Source of the DNA: a virus
Taxonomy: Duplodnaviria; Caudoviricetes
Length of the DNA: 64,000 nucleotides
Direction: 5' to 3' (one strand)
IMG/VR virus record: IMGVR_UViG_3300011113_000415
Positions 36,090-64,000 of this stretch are shown here, one piece after another (position 1 is the stretch's first letter; each line of letters starts with the position of its first letter). A program made the position numbers and the translations under genes. The notes beneath the pieces were generated by a model. The model saw only the letters and a program-made list of their open reading frames with translations, ran no database searches and had not been told where the DNA came from.

Positions 36090-36609
36090 AGGTCTTGGCT
36101 ACAAAGACCTAGAGGGCATGCTAAAGCCCACTATTCACGTGGACGAATTTGATAGTAAAATGGGTGACAATGATGACATCATTGTCGTAAGTTTCTTTGC
36201 CCGTGATAAGGCCGCAGCCAAGGATCTAATGAATTGGTTTGAAAAAGGCTATGACTTTGTGCTGGATGCTGATCAAAGCCCAGGCGAAATCAAACCCAAC
36301 CGATATCTAGTGTATGTGGAAATGCGACGTCGCAGAGCCGCTCCTGAACAGATTGCGGAATTACTAGAAGACCTGGGCACACTCACAGAGTTTGATCCTG
36401 AGGAATGGACCATGGTTTATCGGGAAAAGAGTCATGACTGGAGTCCTGAACTGTTTGCTCGACTGGTGCCACTGAGCCCACGAGAGTATCGTGAGCGCAC
36501 AGAACGAGACTTGAATGAATGGCGTGTGGCAGCCGGCATGCCGGTCAAGACCACATACGAAGCAGATGATGCTATTCGCTCAATACAATCAGCGGCAGGT
36601 ATCCTATGA
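35986..36609 (+). CDS. Hypothetical late protein
   Basis: LLEGLGYKDL...DEFDSKMG; start uncertain. Confidence 0.7.
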   Translation: MTMNSIKVTPVLIKHSSHYNNQEHQLQPHRQSLLEGLGYKDLEGMLKPTIHVDEFDSKMGDNDDIIVVSFFARDKAAAKDLMNWFEKGYDFVLDADQSPGEIKPNRYLVYVEMRRRRAAPEQIAELLEDLGTLTEFDPEEWTMVYREKSHDWSPELFARLVPLSPREYRERTERDLNEWRVAAGMPVKTTYEADDAIRSIQSAAGIL

Positions 36610-38621
36610 AAATACGTGACGTACTATTAGAATTCGCGCCTGGTGGTGGCGGTGACTCAGGTGATTACTTACGAGCCTTGGCTAGTGCCTGGTACAACGG
36701 CACATTTGATTCTGGTAGCCTGCAAAAAGGCATCAAGAGTCAACAAGATGTAGAACGCTTGTTGAATCGCGGCATTGTGTGTCCCGATGGTAAAACACGC
36801 AAACTACACATTGATTACAACTCAGACTTTGATGGTGTGGAAATCTACAGTGATGACTACTATGAACACGGTGACCTAGATGGCAATGACGGTCGCACAG
36901 GACAGCCCTGGGGACCATATGACCACATGGAGTTCAAAGACGAAGAACTAGACGAAGGTGTGGCGGAGGATACAGGTGATCAAAAGTTTGACTCAATGAT
37001 GAGCAGAATGACTGCCGAGCCAAAATATCCTGATCAGGACATGCCACCAACTAGTATTGCTGAATTGATACAATGGGCAGATAGGAACAATAAACCGTAC
37101 CATGAGTATTTTGCTCAATGGGCTAGAAGAAATGGATTTAAAAATGTAAATGATGCACTGGTATGGTTTGGTGACAATGTTGATCCATCTAATCCATGGG
37201 GACCAAAAGACTTTTTAGATCCTTTTGGCCGGCCCGCGGCAGAAGAACTAGAAGATGCTGCCAAGCACGATCCCAAGGCAGCAGAACTAATGAAGGTTTT
37301 TAGATGCTATGAAGAAATTGTATTTGATTGGCCCGATGAGTATCGTCAGATGAATATGCCAGCCTCAAGAAAAGGAACAGATGAAGGTGTGACGGAAGGC
37401 TTAGATCCTTACCGACTGGAACGCCTAGATCCACAGACACGCAGAGTGCTGACTCGCATGACCAAACACGCCGAACCCGGATCATGGCTCAGTGCCGCGG
37501 AGTCATATGCTATGCAACTGGGCCTAGAACAAAAAAATGAGAATCCACGAGCCTGGGAGCAAGAAGTTCAGTATTTTGTCGACCTTTACCGTCAATACAG
37601 TGGGCAAGGCGTGGCGGAAGGCTCCTTGAACGAATTTGCACCCGATAGCAACGACAGTGGTGAAGAAGATGCCTTACACCAGTACGCCAGAATGTGGTGG
37701 GCCGGAGATGAAGCCACACAAATGCAAATTGAACGTGCTCTAGCAAAAATGGGCTGGGAAATTGGTGAGGACGAAGGCAGTTACGACAACGGCGGTGTGT
37801 TTGTGGTACGTGCTGGCGACGTCAACGGCAATAGTTACATTTCATGGCCCGCAGAAGAACTAACAGAAGGCTCGGATCCCTGGGGTTCCCAAGGACGCTA
37901 CGTAGGCGACACAGGACCTGCACAAATATCTACCGCAGTCAAGAGAACCTCATTGAAACCAGGTGATCAAGTCATATACAAACCCACTGAACAACGTGCT
38001 CGTATAGAATCCCTGAGCCGAGACAGCACTCAAGCACGAATTCACATAGCAACTCCCATGGGTGGCCGGATTTTTAACTGCCAAACATCTGACCTAAAAC
38101 AACTGGCCAACGAGACTGAAATTGACCGACTGAAAAATCTTGCTGGTATCAAAGAAAGTCATGACCTTTGCAATGTTTGCGGACAAACACCTTGCAACTG
38201 CACACATTTGTCAGAAGAGTTTGATTTGATAGAATCAATTGTGGAGAAGATTGCTGTCCACAACGGAGTGGACGCAGACATGATCTGGGAAGATTTAGAA
38301 AGTCTCAGCGATGATGAATTGTATGTGTTTGCTGTGACCAGCGAACCCATAATGGAAGACTGGCAAAAGGTCAACAAACAGGATCGTACCTCGGGCATGA
38401 GTCGCAAGGCTGTAAAAGCCTATCGCAGAGAGCATCCAGGATCAAAACTAAAAACTGCTGTGACCACCAAGCCTTCAAAACTCAAGCGTGGTTCGAAGGC
38501 CAGCAAGCGACGCAAAAGTTATTGCAGTCGCAGTCGTGGACAAATGAAAATGCACAACATATCTTGTGCCAAAACTCCTGACAAGGCCATTTGCAAGGCC
38601 CGACGTCGTTGGAACTGTTGA
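36606..38621 (+). CDS. Modular head-type polyprotein (cassettes separated by GV[AT]E linkers; basic Cys-containing C-terminal module)
   Basis: N-term MKIRDVLLE; EGVAED, EGVTEG, QGVAEG, ELTEG linkers. Confidence 0.75.
   Translation: MKIRDVLLEFAPGGGGDSGDYLRALASAWYNGTFDSGSLQKGIKSQQDVERLLNRGIVCPDGKTRKLHIDYNSDFDGVEIYSDDYYEHGDLDGNDGRTGQPWGPYDHMEFKDEELDEGVAEDTGDQKFDSMMSRMTAEPKYPDQDMPPTSIAELIQWADRNNKPYHEYFAQWARRNGFKNVNDALVWFGDNVDPSNPWGPKDFLDPFGRPAAEELEDAAKHDPKAAELMKVFRCYEEIVFDWPDEYRQMNMPASRKGTDEGVTEGLDPYRLERLDPQTRRVLTRMTKHAEPGSWLSAAESYAMQLGLEQKNENPRAWEQEVQYFVDLYRQYSGQGVAEGSLNEFAPDSNDSGEEDALHQYARMWWAGDEATQMQIERALAKMGWEIGEDEGSYDNGGVFVVRAGDVNGNSYISWPAEELTEGSDPWGSQGRYVGDTGPAQISTAVKRTSLKPGDQVIYKPTEQRARIESLSRDSTQARIHIATPMGGRIFNCQTSDLKQLANETEIDRLKNLAGIKESHDLCNVCGQTPCNCTHLSEEFDLIESIVEKIAVHNGVDADMIWEDLESLSDDELYVFAVTSEPIMEDWQKVNKQDRTSGMSRKAVKAYRREHPGSKLKTAVTTKPSKLKRGSKASKRRKSYCSRSRGQMKMHNISCAKTPDKAICKARRRWNC
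36954..37622 (+). repeat. Three dispersed 18-bp in-frame linker repeats (36954, 37383, 37605)
   Basis: GAAGGTGTGGCGGAGGAT / GAAGGTGTGACGGAAGGC / CAAGGCGTGGCGGAAGGC. Confidence 0.8.
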
Positions 38622-44985: not shown

Positions 44986-45245
44986 AATATGTTTTGCTTG
45001 CTCTAGTGTTGTCGGGCTGTAGCACAGTGGTTCCTGTCACAGCCAAATGGCCTGATCCTCCAGGCAAAGGCGCAATGACAGCATGTCCTCATTTGCAAAA
45101 ATTAACAGATGGCGCAAAATTAAGTGATGTTGCAAACACAGTGTCGGTAAACTATAACACCTATTATGAGTGTGCAGTCAAAGCAGATGCCTGGCAGGAG
45201 TGGTATCAAGTTCAAAAGCACATATTTGAAGGTGCTGGTCGATGA
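44982..45245 (+). CDS. Putative outer-membrane lipoprotein spanin (Rz1-like)
   Basis: MKYVLLALVLSGC lipobox; Pro-rich; ATGA overlap. Confidence 0.75.
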   Translation: MKYVLLALVLSGCSTVVPVTAKWPDPPGKGAMTACPHLQKLTDGAKLSDVANTVSVNYNTYYECAVKADAWQEWYQVQKHIFEGAGR

Positions 45246-46228
45246 AAATCTCTGATGTGTTGACAGAAGCAGTGCCTGTGTCGGCACCATCAAATGTGGG
45301 TCGCGACTACATCAACATGCTGAACTTTGTCAAAAGCAGTGGCCTGGAAAACGTGCCGCAAGATCAGCAGGTGGCAGTGGCCTTGTTTAAAGAACTGCAA
45401 AAGCAACAGCAAAAGAACACACAACTAGGGCGTGAACTCAGTGCCGCAGAGCGGCGCATTGATCAAGCCATGCAAAGCGATGACCTGCGTGATCAAGAAT
45501 TGGCCTCACACGAAGCCGAACTTGAACGTGAACGTGGTGAAATTGAAAAGCAACAACAAAAAATGGGTCAAATTGATCAAGCCTATGCAGGTCGTGCGCA
45601 GGCCAGTGAGCGTCAAATGCAGGCCTTGACAACACAGTTGGCTCAATTGAAAGACAAACCAGGTGTGGACAAAAGCACCGCAGAACAATTGCAAAATCAA
45701 ATTGAGAAATTGCGAAAAGAAGGCATTGGTCAAGACAAATTAAAAGAACTGCAAAAGAATATTGAATCAATTCAAAGCATGCAACAGGTAGATGATTCGG
45801 TAATTCGAGACCTGGTTGCCAAAATTCAGTCTGCAGAGTCTATTGCCGCTGACGCAGTCCAAACCAAACAAAAATTAAGTCAGGACCTGGAACTCAAGAC
45901 CCAGGCAGCCTTGGACCAAGTGGCACAAATGCGACAGGATTTGCAAAGATTACAACAAGTTGAGAAGAAAGTGGCCAGCCTTGATAAAGAACTAAGTGAT
46001 CTGGAAATTGAATACAGCGACACTACTAAATCGGTCATGGATCTTGAACAAAATGTGTATCGCATAGACACTGCAATGACGGCAAGGAATCAGGCAGCCG
46101 CTGCCAATATAGCACGACAAATAAAACAAAATCCTCAGGCAGCGGCAACACAAGTACAAAAAACCCCGGCGTTAGAGCCATTGGCCGAATCGAGTTTTCG
46201 CAAATTAATTCGATGGGCCACCAAATAA
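45242..46228 (+). CDS. Long coiled-coil protein with capsid-targeting-like N-terminus
   Basis: MKISDVLTEA; Gln/Glu/Leu heptads. Confidence 0.7.
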   Translation: MKISDVLTEAVPVSAPSNVGRDYINMLNFVKSSGLENVPQDQQVAVALFKELQKQQQKNTQLGRELSAAERRIDQAMQSDDLRDQELASHEAELERERGEIEKQQQKMGQIDQAYAGRAQASERQMQALTTQLAQLKDKPGVDKSTAEQLQNQIEKLRKEGIGQDKLKELQKNIESIQSMQQVDDSVIRDLVAKIQSAESIAADAVQTKQKLSQDLELKTQAALDQVAQMRQDLQRLQQVEKKVASLDKELSDLEIEYSDTTKSVMDLEQNVYRIDTAMTARNQAAAANIARQIKQNPQAAATQVQKTPALEPLAESSFRKLIRWATK

Positions 46229-50772: not shown

Positions 50773-51564
50773 ATGCCCGATCACTATGCAACGCTAGGTG
50801 TTGCCCGAACTGCCACTGCCGATGAGATTAAACGGGCTTTCCGTAAGTTAGCCAGTAAGAATCATCCAGACAAAGGTGGTGATACTAAAAAATTTCAAGA
50901 GATCCAGGCCGCTTATGATGTGCTAGGCAATGTGGCCAAGCGAGCGCAGTATGACTCACCACAACCACAGTTCAGCAGTTTTGGTGGCGGTCCAAACTTC
51001 AATGCCAACTTTGATTTCAATACTATATTTGACATGTTTGGTGCTAGGTTCCAACAACCACAACCACAGCGTCCGCAACATTCCCGAATGACTCTTTGGA
51101 TTACACTTCAGGATGTGGCCAATCCTGGCCCTAGAACTGTGAGCATGGGCACACATTCGGGCACTCACAATGTTCAAGTCAACATTCCCGACGGTATTGA
51201 AGATGGTGATCATGTGAAATATGACAATCTGGCTCCAGGTGGTCAAGACCTAGTGATAACTTATCGAATACATCCCATGCCGCGCTGGCAACGCAACGGT
51301 GCTACTTTGATAACAGAAGCACCTGCAAGTTTCTGGTGCCTGGTTGCTGGAGGTGATGTTACTGTGAGTGATATATTGGGCAATCAATTGGCCCTGACAG
51401 TTCCGCCCAATACTGCACCCGGAACCTTGCTACGTGCTAGAGGTCGCGGCTTACCAGATCGTTCGGGCAACCGTGGGGACATGTTGGTTCGGTTACAGGC
51501 CGCACTACCCACCGCAGTTTCTCCAGAATTAATGGCTGCTATCAAACAAGAAATTGGTCAATAA
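50773..51564 (+). CDS. dnaJ: DnaJ/CbpA-type co-chaperone
   Basis: J-domain with HPD, G/F linker, C-terminal domain G.GLP...GD; no Zn-finger repeats. Confidence 0.92.
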   Translation: MPDHYATLGVARTATADEIKRAFRKLASKNHPDKGGDTKKFQEIQAAYDVLGNVAKRAQYDSPQPQFSSFGGGPNFNANFDFNTIFDMFGARFQQPQPQRPQHSRMTLWITLQDVANPGPRTVSMGTHSGTHNVQVNIPDGIEDGDHVKYDNLAPGGQDLVITYRIHPMPRWQRNGATLITEAPASFWCLVAGGDVTVSDILGNQLALTVPPNTAPGTLLRARGRGLPDRSGNRGDMLVRLQAALPTAVSPELMAAIKQEIGQ

Positions 51565-51582: not shown

Positions 51583-51611
51583 TTGCTGGCCCAGCCTTAT
51601 TCATGTATAAT
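51583..51611 (+). promoter_or_regulatory. sigma70-type promoter
   Basis: TTGCTG-N17-TATAAT. Confidence 0.65.
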
Positions 51612-51645
51612 CAATTGTATGACAACCTCTTCAGGACACAATCAC

Positions 51646-53919
51646 ATGCAACACAACCCAGAAATCGAAAGTATTATTGAAAACGCGGTCAAAATCGCCC
51701 GCACATGGCAACACGAATATGTGTTGACCGAACATGTATTGTTGAGTCTTGTCAGACACGAACCATTCCGTCGTTGCTTGACCAAGTTTGGCACCGACGT
51801 GGCCATGCTAGAAACTGAACTGTGTGCTTACTTAGACAGTTGCCAAAGTCTAGTATCAGACGACCCAGATATCACACCAAGAAAAACCACTGCCCTGGAA
51901 CGCACATTCAATCGTGCGCTGACCCAGGTGTTGTTTACCGGGCGGCGAGCAGTGACCACAATTGACCTGTATCTGGCGCTCATGGGCGAAACCAACAGTC
52001 ACTCACACTACTTCTTGCTCAAGTATGGTGTGACCAAACAGGAGTTTGTGGAGTTTTGGCAGGCCAACTACAATCAAGGCGAAGCCCACAAACTGTCGGA
52101 CCGCCAGGCCACTGAAATCCTAGATGAACATTGCGTGAGTTTGACTGCCCTGGCCAAGAAAGATCGCCTGGAACCCTTGATTGGTCGTGCAAAGGAACTG
52201 GAAGAAATGATTGCTGTGTTGGCTCGACGCTTCAAAGCCAATGTGCTCATGGTAGGCGATCCTGGTGTGGGCAAAACCTGTATTGTGGAAGGCCTGGCAC
52301 AGGAAGTTGCCGCTGGGCGTGTGCCTGAGTTCCTGAAAGATCATGAAGTGTGGAGCCTGGAAATAGGCAGTTTGTTGGCAGGAAGCAAATATCGTGGAGA
52401 GTTTGAAGAAAAGTTCAAGATGGTGATACAGGCCTTGGAAAGTAAGAAGAAGTGTATCTTGTTTATAGACGAAGCACACACCATGCAGGGTGCTGGAGCA
52501 GGATCAAACGGTGCATTGGACTTTGCCAACATGCTGAAACCTGCTATCACTAGAGGCAGTTTGAAAGTTGTGGCATCAACCACCTGGGAAGAGTTCTATG
52601 AAAGTTTTGAAAAGGACCGTGCGCTGATGCGTAGATTCTACCGCTTGGCCATAGATGAACCTGACCGTGACACCACAGAAAAGATTCTGATCGGTCTTTC
52701 TCCCCGCCTTGAGACCTTTCACAATGTGCTGATCGATACCGAAGCCATGACAGCCGCAGTGGACTTGAGCGGTCGCTACATACACGACAAAAAGAATCCT
52801 GACAAATCAATAGACTTGTTGGATGCGGCCTGTGCTAGAGAGCGTGTGAAAGATCAAGGTCAACTCACAGTCACACGTGACTTGATCATGGCTCAAGTGG
52901 CCCGTGTGACCGGTGTGCCAGTGGATCGCTTGCAAAACGAACGTTCGACCAAGATTGTGGATCTTGAATCAAACATCAAGCAGAAGTTGTACGGTCAAGA
53001 TGCCGCTGTAGATTCAGTACTGGAACGTGTATATATCAACTTTTCCGGCATCGGCAATCCCAATCGACCAATGGCTTCATTCTTGTTCTTGGGCCCAACA
53101 GGTACAGGCAAAACAGAATTGGCTCGACTGTTGGCCTCAAACTTGGACATGCACTTGCTGAAATATGACATGAGTGAGTATCAAGAGCGTCACACTGTAT
53201 CCAGCCTAATAGGTGCTCCTCCTGGCTATGTGGGCTTTGAAGATGGCAACATTGGTGGCGGCAAATTGATTTCAGATGTGAGCAGGAATCCATTCAGCAT
53301 AATCTTGTTTGATGAAATTGAAAAGGCTCATCCTGATGTCAGCAATATCTTGTTGCAGATGCTGGATGAAGGACACATAACTTCCAGTAATGGCAAACGA
53401 GTTGATGTCAAGAACTGTATTATCATCATGACATCAAACTTGGGTTCACAGGATTCTGAAGCCAACAACATTGGATTTGGCAGTTTTGAAAAGACAGGCG
53501 AAGATGATCGAGCACTTAAAAACTTTTTCAAACCCGAACTACGTAATCGTATTGATCACGTCTGCAAGTTTGCCAAGTTGGACACCCTGGCCATCAAGAA
53601 AGTTGTGGTCAAGTTTGTGGACGAACTCAAGACAAGTTTGCATACAAAAGGCATACGCCTCGTGCTATCCGAACCAGTCATTGACCTGCTTGCTCTCAAA
53701 GGCTATGATTCGAAGATGGGTGCGAGACCACTCAGCCGCAAGATTGACGAGTTGATTCGTGTGCCGTTGAGCAAGAAGATCTTGTTTGAGAGACTTGCCA
53801 ACTGTGATGTGGTGGCCACTATAGAGGATGATGCTGTGCATTTTGCAATCACTCCAAGATCGGATGCAGTGACCACTATAGGTGATGATGGTATTGTCAG
53901 AATTGTCAATGAAGTTTAA
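51646..53919 (+). CDS. clpA: ClpA-type Hsp100 AAA+ ATPase
   Basis: Clp N-domain (HEYV..EH.LL), GDPGVGKT, DEAH, GPTGTGKT, DEIEKAH, IGF loop, GARPL; start MQHNP after AGGA. Confidence 0.92.
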   Translation: MQHNPEIESIIENAVKIARTWQHEYVLTEHVLLSLVRHEPFRRCLTKFGTDVAMLETELCAYLDSCQSLVSDDPDITPRKTTALERTFNRALTQVLFTGRRAVTTIDLYLALMGETNSHSHYFLLKYGVTKQEFVEFWQANYNQGEAHKLSDRQATEILDEHCVSLTALAKKDRLEPLIGRAKELEEMIAVLARRFKANVLMVGDPGVGKTCIVEGLAQEVAAGRVPEFLKDHEVWSLEIGSLLAGSKYRGEFEEKFKMVIQALESKKKCILFIDEAHTMQGAGAGSNGALDFANMLKPAITRGSLKVVASTTWEEFYESFEKDRALMRRFYRLAIDEPDRDTTEKILIGLSPRLETFHNVLIDTEAMTAAVDLSGRYIHDKKNPDKSIDLLDAACARERVKDQGQLTVTRDLIMAQVARVTGVPVDRLQNERSTKIVDLESNIKQKLYGQDAAVDSVLERVYINFSGIGNPNRPMASFLFLGPTGTGKTELARLLASNLDMHLLKYDMSEYQERHTVSSLIGAPPGYVGFEDGNIGGGKLISDVSRNPFSIILFDEIEKAHPDVSNILLQMLDEGHITSSNGKRVDVKNCIIIMTSNLGSQDSEANNIGFGSFEKTGEDDRALKNFFKPELRNRIDHVCKFAKLDTLAIKKVVVKFVDELKTSLHTKGIRLVLSEPVIDLLALKGYDSKMGARPLSRKIDELIRVPLSKKILFERLANCDVVATIEDDAVHFAITPRSDAVTTIGDDGIVRIVNEV

Positions 53920-55559: not shown

Positions 55560-56600
55560 ATGAAACAACTGGTCATAATGCCGGGCGGATTCCACCCTTT
55601 CCACGCAGGACATCTTGCACTTTACCAAGCCGCCAAAGAAGCGTTCCCTGGCGCCGACGTCAAAGTGGCTGCCACCAATGATACCAGTCAGCGGCCATTT
55701 CCATTCAAGATAAAAGAAAAACTGGCTCAGTTGGCAGGTGTTTCGCCCGGAGACTTTTATCAGGTCAAAAGCCCATTTCGTGCTGAAGAGATTACAAAAA
55801 ATTACACGCCCGAAGATACTGAATTGATATTTGTGCGTTCCGAAAAAGACGCCAACAAGCCTCCACAAGCAGGCGGTATTAAAAAGAATGGCGAATTGGC
55901 TTATTTGCAACCACTTGAAGGACAAGATGTTCTAGAGCCCATGAACCAACATGCCTACATGGCCTACCTGCCCACAGTGGAGTTTGGACCTGGCATGACG
56001 TCAGCCACAGAGATTCGTACTGCCTGGCCCACACTCAACGATAAACGCAAGACTGCTCTAGTAATGAGTCTGTATCCTGACACACAAAAGAATCCCCGAC
56101 TGGCTGCCACAGTTGTAAAGATGTTGGACACAGCAATTGGTACCGAACAACTCAATGAATTTTTACCTGCACTAGGTGCGGCTATTGGTGGAGAACTAGC
56201 GGCTGCTACAGAACTTGGAACAATGGGCACGCTAGGTATGCGTGTGGCTGGTCATAAGATTGGTAGCGATATTGAAGACCAGTTAAACAACAGTGACGTA
56301 GAAGAAACACGTATCATTGATCCCAAACGCATTGATGTGTTCTATCGCCCTGTTCAAAACAGTCGTGGCCGACGTGTGGTGGCCAAGAATGTACCCACCT
56401 CAGCATTGGATGCACTATTGGCCAAACTCAGCGACAAGTTTGGTGTACGTGACACTGACTTTGAGTGGACTGCCGCAGAGAAATCAGTCAGCGAAGACTA
56501 TGTGGAAGAAAAGTGGAGTCAAAAGTACAAGCGGAGCATCAACTGTGCTCACCCTAAAGGCTTCAGTCAACGGGCTCACTGTGCAGGTCGCAAAAAATAA
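55560..56600 (+). CDS. HIGH-family nucleotidyltransferase with appended C-terminal modules
   Basis: PGGFHPFHAGH, TSATEIR; then LNE/VEE-delimited segments ending KWSQKYKRSINC...HC; TAAATA 55549-55554. Confidence 0.75.
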   Translation: MKQLVIMPGGFHPFHAGHLALYQAAKEAFPGADVKVAATNDTSQRPFPFKIKEKLAQLAGVSPGDFYQVKSPFRAEEITKNYTPEDTELIFVRSEKDANKPPQAGGIKKNGELAYLQPLEGQDVLEPMNQHAYMAYLPTVEFGPGMTSATEIRTAWPTLNDKRKTALVMSLYPDTQKNPRLAATVVKMLDTAIGTEQLNEFLPALGAAIGGELAAATELGTMGTLGMRVAGHKIGSDIEDQLNNSDVEETRIIDPKRIDVFYRPVQNSRGRRVVAKNVPTSALDALLAKLSDKFGVRDTDFEWTAAEKSVSEDYVEEKWSQKYKRSINCAHPKGFSQRAHCAGRKK

Positions 56601-56649: not shown

Positions 56650-57588
56650 ATGATAACCCAAACCGGAACAACACCCCCAACACCCCCAGAAACAATGTCA
56701 ACTGATGTGCCATTAGCACCTCAAGAAACACCAACTGGACAACCACAAAATCAAATTCAAGTTAACCTTGATTATTTGAGAACAACTAGGGTCCATCTAT
56801 GCATGCCTTGTTATGGTGGTATGCTCACTGAATCAACATTCATGAGTTATATCAAGTGGGCCAATACTGCTCGTCAACTGGGTATCGATTGGACAGTAGA
56901 AACCATGACCAATGAGTCATTGATCAGCCGTGCCAGAAACACACTCACCGCCAAGTTCTTGCACACCAAAGAATCAACGCACCTGATGTTTATTGATGCT
57001 GACATTGGTTGGGAACCCTGGCACCTGTTGGCCATGTTGAATCACAATGTGGATGTGGTAGGCGGTTTATACCCTATGAAATCATTGCCGGTCAAATGGT
57101 GTGTGAATGGCATTCCGGGCACTCCACAAGATGATCCTTCGGGTCTAATTGAAGTGACCAAGACCGGTACAGGCTTTTTGCTGATGAAACGTGAAGTGTT
57201 TGAAAAACTCAATAGTCACCCGGCTGTGAAGCCTTTTACCAATGACATTGGCCTGGACCCTGTACTCAATCCCTACATGAAAACCTACTTTGACACAGCC
57301 GTGCGTGAAAACCGCTACTACTCAGAAGACTGGACCTTCTGTGAAAATTGGCGTGATCTAGGTGGCCAAGTGTGGGTGGATCGTCGTGTGTTGCTGAAGC
57401 ACACAGGTACCTATGTGTTTGACTATCAAACCCAGGACAAACTGTATCAAGACCTGCACGAAATCGCTACCAACAATCAGATTGCTGCCGCTGCCGCACA
57501 AACAGCCGCGGCGCCTGTTGAAGCCAAGGTCATCGCTACCAACAAAAAAAGCGATAAAAAAGCAGATAAGAAGGCCAAAGCAGCCTAA
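56650..57588 (+). CDS. GT-A fold glycosyltransferase-like protein
   Basis: MPCYGG, ESLISRARN, FIDADI (DxD), GTGF, SEDW.FC; GAGGA SD. Confidence 0.8.
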   Translation: MITQTGTTPPTPPETMSTDVPLAPQETPTGQPQNQIQVNLDYLRTTRVHLCMPCYGGMLTESTFMSYIKWANTARQLGIDWTVETMTNESLISRARNTLTAKFLHTKESTHLMFIDADIGWEPWHLLAMLNHNVDVVGGLYPMKSLPVKWCVNGIPGTPQDDPSGLIEVTKTGTGFLLMKREVFEKLNSHPAVKPFTNDIGLDPVLNPYMKTYFDTAVRENRYYSEDWTFCENWRDLGGQVWVDRRVLLKHTGTYVFDYQTQDKLYQDLHEIATNNQIAAAAAQTAAAPVEAKVIATNKKSDKKADKKAKAA

Positions 57589-57602
57589 CGGTAAATACAC
57601 TC

Positions 57603-60600
57603 ATGAACCTCCATGAGTTAGACCGCTACAAACTTAGTGACGCTGTAAAATTCAATGCTCGTTTGAACCCTCGACTGTGGGGCAAAGATGAGCATTTGAA
57701 GCCCCAAGTGCGCGATGCACTGATGAAAATTGCAGATGATTTCCGCGAAAGTCTGGGCGTTAAAGATCTTGATTTAAAAGACATCACACTTTCAGGATCA
57801 AACGCCGCTTACACTTACACTCCCAATTCAGACATAGATCTACACCTTGTGGTGGATATACCTGATGACCCTGTGTATCGTGAATTGTTTGATGCCAAAA
57901 AGTACGCATATAACAATCAGCATAACATAAAGATTAGTGGCTATGATGTTGAACTGTATGTGCAAGATGTAGACCAGCCACATGTGACTCAAGGTGAATA
58001 CAGTTTGATCGACAACGACTGGATTCAAGTGCCACGTCGTCAACGTGCTGATGTTGTGGATCAAAGCACACGGAGCAAATACCAAGATCTCAAACAACGT
58101 ATCAAGGCGGCTATCAAAACTGAAGATCATGACGTCATGGCCAGTTTGATGGCCAAGATCCGACAACTGCGTCAAAGCGGTCTTGATCAACACGGCGAGT
58201 TTGGTCCTGAGAATCTTGCGTTCAAGATGTTGCGCACACAGGGCTATATCCAAAAATTAGTTGATGCTAGAAACGCTGCCAAGGATCAAGAACTCAGCAT
58301 TGATGAACGTGTGAAGCCGCGTGTGACTTATGGCTTTGCCACTGAATCAAAAGACAGTTTGTCGGACACCATCAATCAGTTTGCCCGTAGTTGTATTGAT
58401 TACTTGGGTATCAAGAAGGCGCCTGAAATCAAGTTGCATACTGATACCAACTGGAGTGAGCAGACAGGTTCGTTTGGTCAGTATGAGCCTGAAACCAATG
58501 TGTTGCACTTGGCCACATCAGGACGTCACACACTAGACATCTTAAGAACCATGGCTCATGAGTTCACACATCGCAAACAAGCAGAAAAACAAAAACTACC
58601 TGCCAATGCAGGTGAGACAGGCAGTCCTTACGAAGACGAAGCCAATGCCATGGCAGGTCGCATCATGCGTCACTGGGCAGAGAAGCATCCTGAGATGTTC
58701 GCTCATGTGCCCTTGGAAGAAGCATCAGGATACATTCCTACTAAAAAGCAAGCAAAGGATCCACGCTTTGTGATGGCTCTCACAAAAGATGTGCGTCCAG
58801 GGCAGACAGGCAAAGAAGCCAATAAACTGGGTTTGCAAACTGATGCCCAAGGTCATCCTGCATTACTAACTGCCCGACTGAATGAAAGTCTTGCTGTAGA
58901 AGATGACCGGTATGGCAATCAAGATCCCACTGGTCCAGAGTCACCACCCAAAATGCCGGACGGCACAATCAAAGTTGATGTAAGTGACATCTATGACTGG
59001 TACAAGATTGGACAAAAGATCAGTGACCTCAAGAGCATTGACAAAAAGACTCTGGGCAAAGGTCCTCCCAGCACTGTGTTGGCATTTGGTTCAGAAGAAC
59101 TTGAAAACATGTACAGCAATGCCTTGATCAACTTGGGCTTGAAAACACATGACCTAGACGAGCCCGGCGAAGAAGACAGACCTGGTTCGGGTCAAGACAT
59201 TGACGAAGCCTTGATTACTGAAACCATTGATGACGCATTGTTTGAAATCAAAATGTCTCCCTCCAATCTGCGCCAAGAAGCAGCCAAGACCGGTGCACTT
59301 GCCGGCATGGAATTTGAAATGATTGTGCCCAATACCGAGGGCGGTGACGATGGAGACCTAGAACCCGACTATGATTACGACCAACGTTGCCGTAGTATAC
59401 AAGACGCATATGACTTTTTCTACGATGGTGACTTCAATGGTCGTAGAGATGTCCAAAACCTGCGTGAAAAGATGCAGGAAGATTATCTTGAGTGGCTGGA
59501 CGAAAAGATCCAAGAAGAATGGGATAGTCAAGGTGAAGAATACATTGCGGAATGGGTCAAGAACAATGTGGATGAATCCGAATGGAATCCAGATGATCTA
59601 GAAGGCGATGCCAGAAACGAAGCACTAGAAGAATATTCTGTAAATGTTCATGCTGATCCTGCCAGTCGTGATTATCAATCAGCCTACGAAGAGTTCCGCG
59701 AAGAACATCAGGAAGATTATGATGAAAGTGACTGGTTGGATGATGCAGATCTAAGCCGCATGAGCGAAATTGAAAATGCCTACAGCATGAGTTGGCCACA
59801 TTGGCGATCACAGGGCGGTGGCGAAGCCAGCATTGAAGATGTGGCGCAGGAATTTGAAAACGCCATTGGGCGTGATGTTCGTGCCAGTGGCAACTATCAC
59901 TCAGGCAGTGTGATACGTCCTAGTCCAACTCAAATACGCTATGTTGTAGAACCTGACGGCAGTTTAGAACCAGATGATCCCAACGATCAAGGCCTGGAGT
60001 TTGTGAGTCCGCCACTACCCATAGACGAAATACTTAGTGACTTGAACAAGGTCAAACAATGGGCCAAGGAGTACGGCTGTTATACCAATGATTCAACTGG
60101 CCTGCACATCAACATTTCAGTGCCCAACTACAGCAGAGAAAACCTAGACTTTGTGAAACTGGCTCTGCTGATGGGTGACAAGTATGTGTTAGATGCTTTT
60201 GGACGTTCAGGCAATACCTATGCTAAGAGTGCGTTTGACATTGTGAAACGTCATGTGCGTGACAATCCTGAAGAGGCCGCCAAGTTGTTAGACAAGATGA
60301 AAGGCAACCTGGATCAACTAGCCACCAAGGCCATTCACTCAGGAATTACTTCAAAGTATACAAGTATCAACACCAAAGACGGCCACATTGAATTCCGTAG
60401 CCCTGGTGGTGACTGGTTAGACGAGAACTTTGATCAAATTGAAAATACCTTGTTGCGTTTCACAGTGGCCATGAGTGCGGCCCTGAATCCTGAAATGTAT
60501 CGTCAAGAATATTTGACCAAGTTATACAAATTGTTGAGCGACGGCAACAAAGATGTGGACACTATCAAGTATTTCTCAGACTATGTGGCCGGCAAGATTC

Positions 60601-63600
60601 CCCGGGCGGCTCTGCGTAGTTTTGTCAAGCAAGCGCAGTTAGAACGTAAACTCAAGCGTGACCCTACAGGCGGTGAACGATACTGGTGGCGTGTTTATAA
60701 AGAAGGTCGCAATGCCAAAAACGGTGCTGAGATTGAACTGGTGGCCACTTCGGAACAAGAAGCCAAAGACAAAGCCGCTAAAGAGTGGGCGACAACATCC
60801 ACACGCGGCTTTGATGCTGTGCCTGTGAGACCGTTTGATCAAACACAATCAACAGGGCCCACACTCAACGGCCGCCCTAGCAATCCTGATGGTGGCTGGG
60901 TAATATCACCAGAAAATGATCGCAGCCGTGTAGTGTATAGATTTGCGGCGGCCAGTTTTGACGATGCTAATATAGTTCGCAGACAGTGGGCCGCTGACAA
61001 CGACGGAGTGTGGATTGTTCAAAGAGATACCAACAGAACCTTGGGTCAGCCTTCTTCATCACAAGAGCAATACCGCACAGGAACCTATGAATTGTTTGAT
61101 AGACGCACTGGTGAGGCTGTCCCTGACAGTGAATTCCCTGCTCGCAATCAATCAGAAATGAACACAAGATTAGATGATTATATCAATCATGGTAGTCACG
61201 GCATGGACACAATAGATGCTCGCTTGTTGTTTGGCGTTCGCCCTGTGGTGGCACCAGCAGACGAACCCGGAGACGTACGAGTTCTTGACAATGCTTTGCG
61301 ACCCACTGGTCCCGGACCTTGGGAAATTTACAATAGAGCCACTGGCAATTCGGCCGCCACACTCAGAGTAGACGGCCAACCCATAACCGATCGTGCTCAA
61401 GCACAACGCATGGCCATGGGCAGTATCGCCGCTGAAAATTATGACCGCTATGGTGTAAGAACTATAGGTACAGGCAGTAGAGCCAACATAGGCACACAAA
61501 CTGACATGGAAAATCGCTTGGGCCTGCCTAGTCAGTCAGCCACAGCCAACTATGCAGTTGTGGATCGTCAAACTCTTGACCCGGTGTTTAGATTCCATGC
61601 TGACGATCGCAGAGCGGCCAATAGAATGTATGGCGAGTGGTTGGCAGCCGCTGGCTTGCCACAAACCACCGAAGACTACGGATTCCAAGAGATTCGCCCA
61701 GAGATTCCCGAAGTGCCCTTGGACATAGAGCAGAACTTGCCGAGCCGGACCGATGGCCGCAATATTGACTACTCATTCAGAGACTTGTTTGGCACCAATG
61801 CCACAGCAGATCAACAGCAAGGTGGCATTGTGGATGTGGCTCCTGATGTGGCACAGAACTTTGGCGGTGAGTTCTCGGGACAGTGGCGCATCTTGGATGG
61901 CGATACCGGCACTGAACTGTTTAGATTCCGTAGTGCTGATCCTAGTCAGGCCGAAGCCAATCGCCTGGCCCGTTTGTGGTTACAACAGAATGCACCCGAT
62001 TCAGACTTTAGAGAAATAGAAGTGGTACCGGTCATGTCAGAAGGTATAGCAGAAGGCAGTTTAGAAGAATTAGCCAATACCAGTCTCAAAGTCAAAGAAC
62101 CCAAAAACTTTGTCAACACAAATGACCGGAAACAAGTGACCTATAAAGTTATGAAGTTTAAGTCTGGCAAAGACACATACTTGATAAACTTCACTGTGAA
62201 AGGTCCACCTGCTTTTGGTCGGAAACAGAACTGGAACGCAGTAAATGTATCGTTTGGTGTGAGAGAACCACAGGACGATTACAGTTTTGGTGATGAAATC
62301 AATACTGATTTGACTGCCAAAAATAAAAATCAATTTTTAATTTATTCAACTGTGATTAACGCTATTCGCAAGTTTATCACAGAATACAACACAGAGATTG
62401 ATGAAATTATCATGCAGGGTGCTGGTGAAAGACAAGAAGCCATGTATCAACGTTTTTTCCAGTCAGCGGGCAAATATTTCCCAGGATGGCACTATGATGG
62501 CAAACACAGTCTAGTGCGTGATGTTCCTAGACAAACAGGAAAGAAAGTTCGAGAGCAAGGTGTCACCGAAGGTGTTAATGATTATCTATGGCACGGATCT
62601 AAATCTAAACATGATATTTTATACCCACAGCAAGCAAACGATACCGGTGGTAAAAAAGAAAGTAATAAAAATGCTGTATACGCTACTCCTAGTGCCCGAG
62701 TTGCTATAGCAATGGGACTGACTACACCTGGCTCAGACACAGGCATGTTTCCTAATGACCCGCAAATGGTACTATTCAAGGGCGGTATTAGAAAAGGCCA
62801 AATGGTATACCTGCACAAGGTGCCTAAAGATTTATTCATAAAACACAATGACCGAGAATGGTATTCCAAGCCGGGTGTCAAAGAAGTTAAGCCTATAGAA
62901 GTAGTAACAGTTCCTGTGGATAAATGGTTGCATTTGATTAGGCAGGCAACACCACAAGATTTAGAATTACAGAAAAAGAATTTGAAGAAGCAAGGTATAG
63001 CAGAAAGTTCAACCAAAAACTTTGTTAATGGCGGGTATGCTAAAGAATTTCTTGGAGAATATCCTAGTATAGAAACTACACTGGGCGAAGCCAACGATTA
63101 TACTTCTCATCCTGATCTTGTAGCATACGATAAAAAACTTGAAAAAAAATTACACCGTGATATTGACGTCACTCAAGGCCAAAGAAAAAATCTTGTGCCA
63201 CTAGATTATGATCAAGAACCCGAGTGGAGTGATGTTGAGTATGCCCAAGATTACACTGGTGGCAGTTTGGATATAAATGATTACCTGCATAGACAATATA
63301 GAAAACAAACCAAGCCCGAAGAAATAAAAGAATTTCTGAAAAAAATCCAAGCACTGGACCGATTGTTGGCCAATCACAAATTACCACAACAAATTGTGGT
63401 ATACACAGGATTAAAACAAAGTCCATCTGATGCCTGGGAAACATATGGTGCAGATGTTTCTAAACCTATTAGACTGCACTTGCCAGCATACACTTCTACT
63501 ACTACCCGACTTAAAACTGCGTTGGAACGTGTTGAAGACGAGGTTGTGCAAGTTCCCCGAGCAAGGCACAAACCAAGAAATAAAGACGCTCCAAAAGACG

Positions 63601-64000
63601 ATGATGATTGGGGGTCACAAGTTCTCATGATAACTTTGCCTGCAGGAACGCCGGCGGGCAGTGTTAAAAAAGTCAGTGAGTATCCGGATGAGAATGAAAT
63701 ATTGTTGCCCAGAGGCATGGATATAGAAATTAATCCACGTCCTACTGTGCTCAAGGGTGGTGATTTTGTTTGGCATGCACAGGCATTAGGGCATAATCCG
63801 GTACAGATTGCTCCTCCTATGCAGGAAAACGTTGCTGATGAATCTCTCACTGAGATTGCGCCCATGCCAGCCCATCACTTCGCCGGTGGTAAAGCCATGC
63901 TGGACTACATGCCACCACCCACGAAAAAACACCTCAAGCCCTTGCCCGGTGGCACAGATCTCATGTATGCCATTGGACCAGAAACTCGAGTGCAGATTGT
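57603..64000 (+). CDS. Giant polyvalent protein (>2130 aa, 3'-truncated): Pol-beta NTase, HExxH zincin, amidoligase, repeats, Arr-like ART, VIP2-like ART
   Basis: Manual translation found no stop; GSN...DID...ELY (57795-57960), HEFTH (58557), GMEFE/GLEFVSP/TGLHINIS/IEFRS (59304-60400), WHGS...VYAT (about 62590-62690), YTSTT...ENEILLPRG (63489-63716); TAAATA 57592-57597. Confidence 0.85.
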   Translation, partial: MNLHELDRYKLSDAVKFNARLNPRLWGKDEHLKPQVRDALMKIADDFRESLGVKDLDLKDITLSGSNAAYTYTPNSDIDLHLVVDIPDDPVYRELFDAKKYAYNNQHNIKISGYDVELYVQDVDQPHVTQGEYSLIDNDWIQVPRRQRADVVDQSTRSKYQDLKQRIKAAIKTEDHDVMASLMAKIRQLRQSGLDQHGEFGPENLAFKMLRTQGYIQKLVDARNAAKDQELSIDERVKPRVTYGFATESKDSLSDTINQFARSCIDYLGIKKAPEIKLHTDTNWSEQTGSFGQYEPETNVLHLATSGRHTLDILRTMAHEFTHRKQAEKQKLPANAGETGSPYEDEANAMAGRIMRHWAEKHPEMFAHVPLEEASGYIPTKKQAKDPRFVMALTKDVRPGQTGKEANKLGLQTDAQGHPALLTARLNESLAVEDDRYGNQDPTGPESPPKMPDGTIKVDVSDIYDWYKIGQKISDLKSIDKKTLGKGPPSTVLAFGSEELENMYSNALINLGLKTHDLDEPGEEDRPGSGQDIDEALITETIDDALFEIKMSPSNLRQEAAKTGALAGMEFEMIVPNTEGGDDGDLEPDYDYDQRCRSIQDAYDFFYDGDFNGRRDVQNLREKMQEDYLEWLDEKIQEEWDSQGEEYIAEWVKNNVDESEWNPDDLEGDARNEALEEYSVNVHADPASRDYQSAYEEFREEHQEDYDESDWLDDADLSRMSEIENAYSMSWPHWRSQGGGEASIEDVAQEFENAIGRDVRASGNYHSGSVIRPSPTQIRYVVEPDGSLEPDDPNDQGLEFVSPPLPIDEILSDLNKVKQWAKEYGCYTNDSTGLHINISVPNYSRENLDFVKLALLMGDKYVLDAFGRSGNTYAKSAFDIVKRHVRDNPEEAAKLLDKMKGNLDQLATKAIHSGITSKYTSINTKDGHIEFRSPGGDWLDENFDQIENTLLRFTVAMSAALNPEMYRQEYLTKLYKLLSDGNKDVDTIKYFSDYVAGKIPRAALRSFVKQAQLERKLKRDPTGGERYWWRVYKEGRNAKNGAEIELVATSEQEAKDKAAKEWATTSTRGFDAVPVRPFDQTQSTGPTLNGRPSNPDGGWVISPENDRSRVVYRFAAASFDDANIVRRQWAADNDGVWIVQRDTNRTLGQPSSSQEQYRTGTYELFDRRTGEAVPDSEFPARNQSEMNTRLDDYINHGSHGMDTIDARLLFGVRPVVAPADEPGDVRVLDNALRPTGPGPWEIYNRATGNSAATLRVDGQPITDRAQAQRMAMGSIAAENYDRYGVRTIGTGSRANIGTQTDMENRLGLPSQSATANYAVVDRQTLDPVFRFHADDRRAANRMYGEWLAAAGLPQTTEDYGFQEIRPEIPEVPLDIEQNLPSRTDGRNIDYSFRDLFGTNATADQQQGGIVDVAPDVAQNFGGEFSGQWRILDGDTGTELFRFRSADPSQAEANRLARLWLQQNAPDSDFREIEVVPVMSEGIAEGSLEELANTSLKVKEPKNFVNTNDRKQVTYKVMKFKSGKDTYLINFTVKGPPAFGRKQNWNAVNVSFGVREPQDDYSFGDEINTDLTAKNKNQFLIYSTVINAIRKFITEYNTEIDEIIMQGAGERQEAMYQRFFQSAGKYFPGWHYDGKHSLVRDVPRQTGKKVREQGVTEGVNDYLWHGSKSKHDILYPQQANDTGGKKESNKNAVYATPSARVAIAMGLTTPGSDTGMFPNDPQMVLFKGGIRKGQMVYLHKVPKDLFIKHNDREWYSKPGVKEVKPIEVVTVPVDKWLHLIRQATPQDLELQKKNLKKQGIAESSTKNFVNGGYAKEFLGEYPSIETTLGEANDYTSHPDLVAYDKKLEKKLHRDIDVTQGQRKNLVPLDYDQEPEWSDVEYAQDYTGGSLDINDYLHRQYRKQTKPEEIKEFLKKIQALDRLLANHKLPQQIVVYTGLKQSPSDAWETYGADVSKPIRLHLPAYTSTTTRLKTALERVEDEVVQVPRARHKPRNKDAPKDDDDWGSQVLMITLPAGTPAGSVKKVSEYPDENEILLPRGMDIEINPRPTVLKGGDFVWHAQALGHNPVQIAPPMQENVADESLTEIAPMPAHHFAGGKAMLDYMPPPTKKHLKPLPGGTDLMYAIGPETRVQI
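60681..61979 (+). repeat. About six degenerate protein-level repeats in the giant ORF
   Basis: Unit [WY]-x-[IV]-x-[DN]-R-x-T-G-xn-F-x-A-xn-helix-W. Confidence 0.55.
62040..63008 (+). repeat. Three dispersed 18-bp in-frame linker repeats (62040, 62556, 62991)
   Basis: GAAGGTATAGCAGAAGGC / CAAGGTGTCACCGAAGGT / CAAGGTATAGCAGAAAGT, encoding EGIAEG, QGVTEG, QGIAES. Confidence 0.8.

Follow-up and report, generated by a model that had tools for sequence, protein, structure and literature searches.

At the 3' end of IMG/VR virus record IMGVR_UViG_3300011113_000415 (Duplodnaviria; Caudoviricetes), a 64,000-nucleotide stretch of DNA analysed here over its whole length and referred to as the window, lies a giant open reading frame (ORF), P0001, which is the subject of this work. 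P0001 starts with an ATG at 57603 on the plus strand and continues for 2132 codons to position 63998, where it leaves the window still open. An earlier description, made from the letters of the window without database searches (the sequence-only reading), had reported a single frame of more than 2130 codons running past the window, and had named a missed stop or a frameshift splitting the ORF as grounds for abandoning it; no stop is present between 57603 and 63998. The likelihood that a frame of 2132 codons arises by chance at a GC-content of 45% is negligible. Throughout, P denotes proteins, L related loci or contigs and G near-complete relative genomes, drawn from IMG/VR contigs.

Modules of the N-terminal half

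The frame opens with MNLHE (57603..57617), a candidate propeptide of five residues ending in L-x-E; the [IL]xE at residues 3-5 is retained, as MN[IL]xE, in 101 of 106 homologues. Residues 6-235 (57618..58307) qualify, by profile and by motif, as a predicted Pol-beta-type nucleotidyltransferase (NTase). The module scores 24.8 bits against NTP_transf_2 (PF01909; cut-off 21) and matches phrog_36119 with an E-value of 1.5e-36. Its motifs (GS at 57792-57812, DID at 57828-57845 and VELYV at 57948-57962) read SGS...SDIDLH...VELYV without variation across the 106 homologues, a pattern that fits G[SG]-x(7-13)-D-x-D followed by a third carboxylate. The module closes at SIDE|R, kept in 99 of the 106, and stand-alone relatives of it occur in cyanomyoviruses and in Maribacter phages.

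The next module, residues 236-373 (58308..58721), is a zincin-like domain with an HExxH motif, HEFTH (58557-58571), and a downstream Glu (58632-58646), both conserved in the alignment of homologues. Its best family is the putative metallopeptidase DUF6782, at an E-value of 5e-5 and a sub-threshold 23 bits (cut-off 27); DUF6782 also matches 9 of 20 homologues of the domain, and a profile search by sequence returned no match among solved structures. The HExxH zincin of the sequence-only reading is upheld by its motif, but falls short of assignment to a family. Two small modules follow (residues 374-428 and 429-548; 58722..59246), with borders at PLEE|A, RLNE|S and ALFE|I. This zone varies in length and accepts insertions among homologues; [LIVM]xE is found at residues 426-428 in 79/106 of them and at residues 546-548 in all 106. 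In L007 and L008 the ASGYI start is preceded by a QGVAE linker.

Residues 549-1020 (59247..60662) were assigned to Amidoligase_2 (PF12224), the glutamine-synthetase-like COOH-NH2 ligases, on the strength of a profile score above the curated cut-off (32.3 bits against 22) and of retained motifs with the acidic and His residues (GMEFEM, VEPD, GLEFVSPP and STGLHIN). The predicted ligase has stand-alone homologues in Ralstonia phage RsoM2USA and Agrobacterium phage Atu_ph07. The nucleotidyltransferase and the amidoligase had both been proposed from the letters alone, and both calls, as well as the order in which the domains were said to stand, were borne out module by module.

Downstream of the amidoligase, residues 1097-1480 (60891..62042) comprise five beta-beta-alpha-beta repeats, R2-R6. 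In hhalign comparisons the pairs R2-R5, R2-R6, R3-R4, R3-R5 and R5-R6 reached probabilities of 89-96%, and an AlphaFold2 model of R3-R6 (residues 1155-1485; pLDDT ~70-83) has the beta-beta-alpha-beta unit in each of the four. Six repeats had been counted originally. The additional candidate, R1 (residues 1026-1083; 60678..60851), is unsupported by profile comparison, its hhalign probability against R2-R6 being below 3%; in a leave-one-out analysis its real score was reached by 7 of 1000 shuffles. The repeats gave no significant fold match in any library, the only rows, all weak, being to proteins of GIY-YIG-type topology and to several small ones that are uncharacterised, and an atlas search with them gave no usable match.

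Modules of the C-terminal half

Beyond the repeats the character of the protein changes to a series of cassettes. Residues 1487-1652 (62061..62558) had been listed as a 166-residue module of no known kind. A weak likeness can now be attached to it: it matches the phage-only family DUF6934 (PF22028) at a sub-threshold E-value of 5e-4, and in the atlas it lies closest to clusters of phage DUF6934 proteins. Fifty matches to it, each representing a different 50%-identity cluster, lie at differing positions in their proteins; full-length copies are mostly 74-96% identical to that of the window, and distant matches ~30-50%.

The following cassette (residues 1658-1797; 62574..62993) carries WHGS (62589-62600), YAT (within 62676-62690) and R-E (within 62850-62861). 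In an alignment of 27 sequences (A1) W-H-G-S, N-x-N-A-x-Y-A-T and R-E are invariant, as are H7, Y36 and E95 of the module. A joint alignment with the DUF6934-like module (A2) was discarded: MAFFT had scattered the N-termini of the WHGS-bearing module. The structural model (pLDDT 74) places the module among the ADP-ribosyltransferases (ARTs). Tpt1/KptA or Arr accounted for 11 of the 12 best Foldseek rows against the PDB, albeit with weak E-values, and in a second structure comparison all 50 of the matches listed were ART-fold proteins, with Tpt1 at Z 8.1 (76 residues, root-mean-square deviation 2.3) and Arr at Z 5.8-6.4 (100-107 residues). The nearest AlphaFold DB clusters were those of DUF3990 (E-value 1e-7, TM 0.70-0.76), a member of the Pfam ART clan (PMC7955679). 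On these models, residues 1658-1797 are a domain of the ART superfamily with an H-Y-E-like signature, nearest to DUF3990 and Tpt1. Arr, Tpt1/KptA and DUF3990 (the H-Y/H clade) have in common with it the ART fold, with HGS and Y-A-T on strands one and two and R-E later; it differs from them in matching no Pfam family, Arr-ms included, at E-values up to 5, and in its middling Z scores (5.8-8.1). Sequence-profile matches to solved structures likewise included no Arr and nothing else of relevance. The module had been called an Arr-like ART from its H-G-S and Y-A-T; the fold was right, but membership of the Arr family was rejected, there being neither an Arr-ms profile match nor a match by sequence to solved Arr.

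A second, larger ART of the C3/VIP2/Alt type occupies residues 1803-2076 (63009..63830). It scores 63.3 bits against ADPrib_exo_Tox (cut-off 23.4), also matches the Alt-like phrog_802, and contains VVYTGL (63396-63413), STT (within 63489-63506) and ENE (within 63687-63716). As a VIP2/Alt-like ART it agrees with what had been proposed, except in one position: Thr 1935, in VVYTGL (residues 1932-1937), aligns with the catalytic Arg of C3larvin, Plx2A and Certhrax, and relatives of solved structure read V-Y-R-G at this place, whereas S-T-T and E-N-E are intact. The same Thr is found in both homologues detected (P0014 and P0081). Because the catalytic Arg is missing, the activity of this module is uncertain.

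The final 51 residues in the window, from residue 2082 on (63846..63998), begin a GNAT-like module that continues past the window. A module of ~225 residues is present at the same point in 11 homologues, always at the C-terminus; Acetyltransf_1 matches it in P0047 and P0039 at a marginal 20.8-21.0 bits (cut-off 20.7).

A conserved core with variable cassettes

P0001 is one of a family of over 1000 proteins, 1200-2300 residues long, that are built on a common core; many are encoded on 330-360 kb contigs of uncultured jumbo phages. Among 120 members listed, the zincin, small-module, amidoligase and repeat parts were present in every one and the NTase in 117; several of the NTase-less members appear N-terminally truncated. 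In the same 120, the DUF6934-like cassette was found in 8 proteins, the H-Y-E ART in 8, the C3-type ART in 2 and the GNAT module in 11; a guess that most members end in a GNAT module proved wrong. Other members carry additional domains, among them GH19 with LysM, deaminase, GNAT, ParB, M48 peptidase, NUDIX and ART. By these counts the first five modules (NTase, zincin, the two small modules, amidoligase and repeats) are a conserved core, and the C-terminal cassettes are variable.

The closest relative, L049 (79% identity), lies on a 333 kb contig; its core protein ends at 1396 residues and is followed by separate small ORFs. More distant relatives encode the amidoligase apart from the NTase-zincin part, each in a gene of its own. 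No DNA near-identical to the window was found in cultured phages.

Linkers as breakpoints of cassette exchange

The C-terminal modules are set apart by short linkers that sit exactly between them. Linker 1, GIAEG (residue 1481; 62043..62057), is followed by SLEE; linker 2, GVTEG (residue 1653; 62559..62573), and linker 3, GIAES (residue 1798; 62994..63008), flank the H-Y-E ART. Linker 4, VADES (residue 2077; 63831..63845), is a variant, with ESVQES, GVAED or VAEG in homologues. The pattern G[VI][AT]E[GS] occurs five times in the six frames of the window, in every case in frame and in just two genes, P0001 and a gene at 36606-38621. Modules separated by LxE or G[VI][AT]E sites had been described before; the description holds for the linkers at residues 1481, 1653 and 1798, with VADES at 2077 as a departure from the pattern. 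In the conserved core, [LIVM]-x-E at residues 3-5, 233-235, 426-428 and 546-548 marks the N-terminus and three module borders.

The role of linkers 2 and 3 became apparent on comparison of the window with an independent contig, L051. Nucleotide identity is 93-100% over 62574-62993, the H-Y-E cassette, and random beyond both linkers: it climbs from random to 97-100% at linker 2, the left breakpoint, and falls to random at linker 3, the right breakpoint. The neighbours of the shared cassette differ, L051 having a ParB-like module upstream and an unrelated module downstream. Across 26-27 contexts the same cassette is preceded by 21 different neighbours and followed by 22. The alignment shows the linkers to be the exact breakpoints at which cassettes were swapped between phages.

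A survey of linker codons in related loci (L001-L039 and L049-L051) showed that the GVAE linker is spelled GGTGTGGCGGAA at 45 of 65 unique sites (for example at L021 9854, 10316, 10457 and 10655), where codon usage predicts 0.5%; GTG and GCG are rare codons in these relatives. In near-complete genomes the pattern is confined to the cargo locus, and a backwards-read control gave none. In relatives the constraint thus acts on the DNA and extends beyond the peptide. The three linkers of the window are written with other codons, the peptide motif being kept without the canonical DNA word.

Leaders and candidate processing sites

Related cargo loci contain 46 distinct ORFs, all on the cargo strand, that begin with MRAxEF[IL]xE (for example at L049 14188, 15044 and 15696; L011 14876-19109; L027 931-6435). 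Cargo proteins of phage T4 carry the capsid-targeting sequence (CTS) MKTYQEFIAE and are cut once beside it (PMC8442874); the MRAxEFIxE leaders are close to this sequence and offer a ready marker for listing candidate head-packaged proteins of the clade. Just downstream of the L049 core gene at least two ORFs (140 and 209 residues) open with MRAxEF[IL]xE, and one of 360 residues opens with the variant MRAEEFVNE. In L017, L018 and L025 the leader runs directly into the linker, as EFIVE-GVAE-G, and in L025 the H-Y-E ART module comes next.

The second linker-bearing gene of the window, P0005 (36606..38621, plus strand; 671 residues), looks from its sequence like a second cargo polyprotein: it opens with the leader MKIRDVLLE, contains two linkers, at 37386 and 37608, and ends in a DUF6321 domain. 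The window genes at 36606-38621 and 45242-46228 both open with MKI[RS]DVL[LT]E, which resembles a capsid-targeting sequence.

Two near-complete relatives, G001 and G003, encode a Peptidase_S77 of the T4 gp21 type together with a Gp23 capsid protein, and Peptidase_S77 is present in G004 too. The capsid proteins of Vibrio phage 2.275.O, Sinorhizobium phage Phosso and Pseudomonas phage PA5oct share 67-70% identity with that of G001. In a relative's capsid protein MLAE|N stands ~41 residues before GVQPM, at the place where comparison with T4 gp23 would lead one to expect a T4-type maturation cut. The linkers G[VI][AT]E[GS] fit the [LIV]-x-E specificity of a gp21-type protease. In T4, Alt is shortened by six residues at ITE-6 and by 63 at LTE-619 (PMC5694885); the N-terminus of the P0001 family, MN[IL]xE, parallels ITE-6 and may be cleaved in the same way.

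A promoter-like box upstream of P0001

Eleven nucleotides before the ATG of P0001 lies TAAATA (57592..57597, plus strand; GTAAATAC), which had been called a late box. The interval between the preceding stop and the ATG reads GGTAAATACACTC and contains no Shine-Dalgarno sequence. On the plus strand of the window TAAATA occurs 19 times, and 11 of the copies fall within 35 nt upstream of gene starts, where 0.4 are expected (approximate starts 2284, 21742, 22657, 29225, 35470, 44531, 47850, 49907, 55549, 56620 and 57592). A promoter-like role is in keeping with this enrichment, but the box is not the T4 late consensus. The copies fall into two spacing classes: one, that of P0001, stands 10-11 nt from the start without a Shine-Dalgarno sequence, an arrangement that hints at mRNAs with no leader or almost none; the other stands 22-25 nt away and is followed by AAGGA. 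L049 has kept the box ahead of its core gene, and TAAATA is a plausible promoter element.

A proposed packaged polyprotein and its alternatives

Taken together, these data lead us to propose, with a probability of roughly 0.58, that P0001, from an uncultured jumbo myovirus whose head forms as in T4, is a polyvalent cargo polyprotein which is packaged in the head and cut by a gp21-type protease. Packaging and processing draw indirect support from the gp21-type protease and Gp23 of relatives, the T4-CTS-like leaders of neighbouring cargo ORFs in relatives, the Alt-like N-terminus and the fit of the linkers to [LIV]-x-E. According to this proposal P0001 would be made from a TAAATA-type promoter and built into the prohead core, where a prohead protease of the T4 gp21 type would cut after [LIV]-x-E at MNLHE, at the domain borders and at the G[VI][AT]E[GS] linkers. 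Once freed, the enzymes would stay inside the head until they accompany the DNA into the cell, where host or defence targets would be nucleotidylated, ADP-ribosylated and acetylated and would have amide bonds ligated on them; these activities are predicted from family chemistry alone, and packaging, cleavage and injection are likewise steps that we infer. The same linkers are joints for the exchange of cassettes between phages by recombination, as the breakpoints show at the level of sequence. P0001 adds four exchangeable cassettes (DUF6934-like, H-Y-E ART, C3/Alt-type ART and GNAT) to the conserved core.

Several observations weigh against packaging and cleavage by a prohead protease. The gene lies outside the head module, between the DnaJ/ClpB-like genes and a DNA polymerase gene; P0001 itself has neither an MRAxEFIxE nor an MKIxDVLxE leader; [LIV]-x-E is a short motif; and P0001 carries its own zincin, a possible cutter. 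The gp21-type protease and capsid genes are attributed to the window's phage from its relatives. The T4 late consensus TATAAATA is absent from the window, and TAAATA is lacking upstream of the capsid gene in a distant relative. The C-terminal half gave no tblastn match against 50,697 phage records, there is no cultured close relative, and the R-S-E triad of the C3-type module is incomplete, its Arg being replaced.

The main alternative is that P0001 is a cytoplasmic, non-packaged multi-enzyme protein, expressed during infection, that acts in the cell which made it, either as one chain or after cutting itself at the linkers with the HExxH zincin. Neighbours that are chaperone and replication genes in place of head genes, the want of a CTS-type leader and the conservation of the zincin in all homologues would each be accounted for, and autoproteolysis by metallopeptidase domains of this sort has been proposed (PMC5512222). 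It is harder to reconcile with the cargo proteins P0002-P0004, which bear linkers but no zincin and would need cutting in trans, with the T4-CTS-like leaders on neighbouring cargo ORFs, or with the conserved, Alt-like [IL]xE-5 at the N-terminus; the GH19 and LysM domains of homologues would also suit a virion-delivered wall hydrolase, although an endolysin-like use of them is possible. We regard the cytoplasmic protein as unlikely, at about one chance in four. Less probable again, in our judgement, is that the linkers are recombination joints or flexible spacers only and that the protein is an uncleaved, single giant enzyme, packaged or not. Breakpoints that fall exactly at linkers and, in relatives, a GGTGTGGCGGAA spelling far above expectation, which points to a constraint on DNA and not on the peptide alone, speak for this view, and packaging of a polyvalent protein without processing has a precedent in N4 vRNAP (PMC5512222). 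Set against this are the retention of the peptide motif in the window's linkers despite their differing codons, the Glu with which the motif always ends, its resemblance to the end of the CTS, and the tandem arrangement of CTS and linker in EFIVE-GVAE-G.

A further possibility is that a chimeric assembly or a sequencing artefact has joined separate genes into one frame. The L049 core protein does stop at 1396 residues, with separate small ORFs after it, and linkers, being short repeats, might mislead an assembler; yet the linkers extend over only ~14 nt, far less than a read, and the reading frame is intact across every junction. Comparable giant frames occur on independent contigs, namely the 2266-residue P0031, a fusion with four linkers, and a 2548-residue frame in L011, with further fusions in P0048, P0052, P0053 and P0068. 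Because of these an artefact is unlikely; a chimera was rejected, and we give it only a very small residual chance.

Returning to the packaged polyprotein, a more specific and more tentative proposal, to which we give somewhat less than even odds, is that the linker (GVAE-G), which most relatives write GGTGTGGCGGAA(GG), is a dual mark, at once a prohead-protease site and a recombination joint, and that the clade shuffles head-packaged cassettes either as CTS-led genes or as beads on one protein. Were it so, phages would possess an equivalent of their own to polymorphic toxin systems.

Relation to known systems

Polyvalent proteins were defined computationally by Iyer, Burroughs, Anand, de Souza and Aravind in 2017, with a repertoire that includes ART, NTase, metallopeptidase, GNAT and ParB domains (PMC5512222), and are proposed to be injected (PMC5512222, PMC7824862). 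Delivery together with the DNA is part of that proposal for the class. P0001 resembles them in joining many unrelated effector-type domains in one chain and in extensive shuffling. Where 2-15 unrelated effector domains are expected of the class, P0001 has at least 8 distinct modules, six with enzyme signatures; as for an origin in a mobile element, it has PHROG matches and homologues on IMG/VR contigs with T4-type capsid and protease genes. It differs in that the family core is an NTase-zincin-amidoligase-repeat unit found in more than 1000 jumbo-phage proteins (the word 'amidoligase' is absent from the text of PMC5512222), and in that its cassettes are set off by one recurrent linker, which has the form of a T4-type protease site and whose nucleotide sequence is largely fixed among relatives. 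When full texts were searched for 'polyvalent protein' in combination with 'prohead protease', PMC5512222 and one unrelated preprint were all that came up.

Another precedent is the CTS-packaged, gp21-trimmed and injected cargo of T4, Alt and IPI-III. Relatives in the phage lineage of P0001 likewise encode gp21- and gp23-type proteins and have MRAxEFIxE leaders on neighbouring cargo ORFs, and P0001 has an Alt-like ART and a short N-terminal [IL]xE. T4, however, encodes its cargo as separate single-function genes, whereas P0001 chains up to ~nine modules with internal sites; its Alt-like ART has Thr for the catalytic Arg, and its packaging is a prediction. Giant phages of the phiKZ type, such as SPN3US, are also jumbo phages with a large mass of head protein; their ejection or inner-body proteins are trimmed by the prohead protease after the Glu of a three-residue motif, A/S/G-x-E (PMC5694885). 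In contrast to these, the major capsid protein of G001 belongs to the different capsid lineage of PA5oct, Phosso and 2.275.O; the proteins are unrelated, and arrays of enzyme cassettes are not described for the phiKZ-like group. Polymorphic toxins, such as CdiA-CT after its VENN motif and the C-terminal toxins of Rhs proteins, have a short conserved junction at which cassettes are swapped by recombination; they are bacterial, secreted, paired with immunity genes and variable at one tip per protein. P0001, by contrast, is a phage protein in which several cassettes stand one after another, and immunity genes were not observed.

A T4 Alt-type or polyvalent multi-effector protein was what the sequence-only reading had envisaged, and its modular reading of the domains was essentially right. 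The enzyme combination and the cassette grammar had struck it as uncharacterised; the word holds for these, but not for the general class, which had been described (PMC5512222). The advance is accordingly the grammar and the enzyme combination and not the concept: what is new is the conserved NTase-zincin-amidoligase-repeat core, the T4-CTS-like leaders, and a linker that marks candidate cuts and demonstrated breakpoints.

If the proposal is correct, abundant uncultured phages of 330-360 kb deliver a customisable enzyme set at the moment of infection, with nucleotidyltransferase, peptidase, amidoligase and acetyltransferase among its members, as well as ADP-ribosyltransferases of two kinds. 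The rules by which it is built (a T4-like leader, [LIV]-x-E sites and a conserved exchange joint) would be legible from sequence alone, giving a means to list candidate injected effectors or anti-defence proteins in metagenomes and a natural rule by which large phage heads could be designed to carry foreign proteins. Candidate modules for study are also on offer: the small repeats, the DUF6934-like module, the H-Y-E ART and the core amidoligase.

Genes upstream of P0001

The order DnaJ, ClpA/B-like ATPase, small ORFs and core gene is a conserved synteny. In the window a DnaJ-like gene (50773-51564) and a gene for a 778-residue ClpA/B-like double-AAA+ ATPase (51583-53919; phrog_4871, E-value 2e-235) lie just upstream of the cargo genes, and the position of the pair is kept in L049, L051, L021 and L024. 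The presence of a chaperone or unfoldase pair beside such giant multi-domain proteins may relate to their folding or loading.

A 312-residue gene (56650-57588), whose stop lies 15 nt before the ATG at 57603, directly precedes P0001. Upstream of it, two genes from P0001, is a 346-residue ORF (55560-56600) with a weakly cytidylyltransferase-like N-terminus (phrog_395, E-value 9e-5); the corresponding ORF of L051 matches CTP_transf_like weakly.

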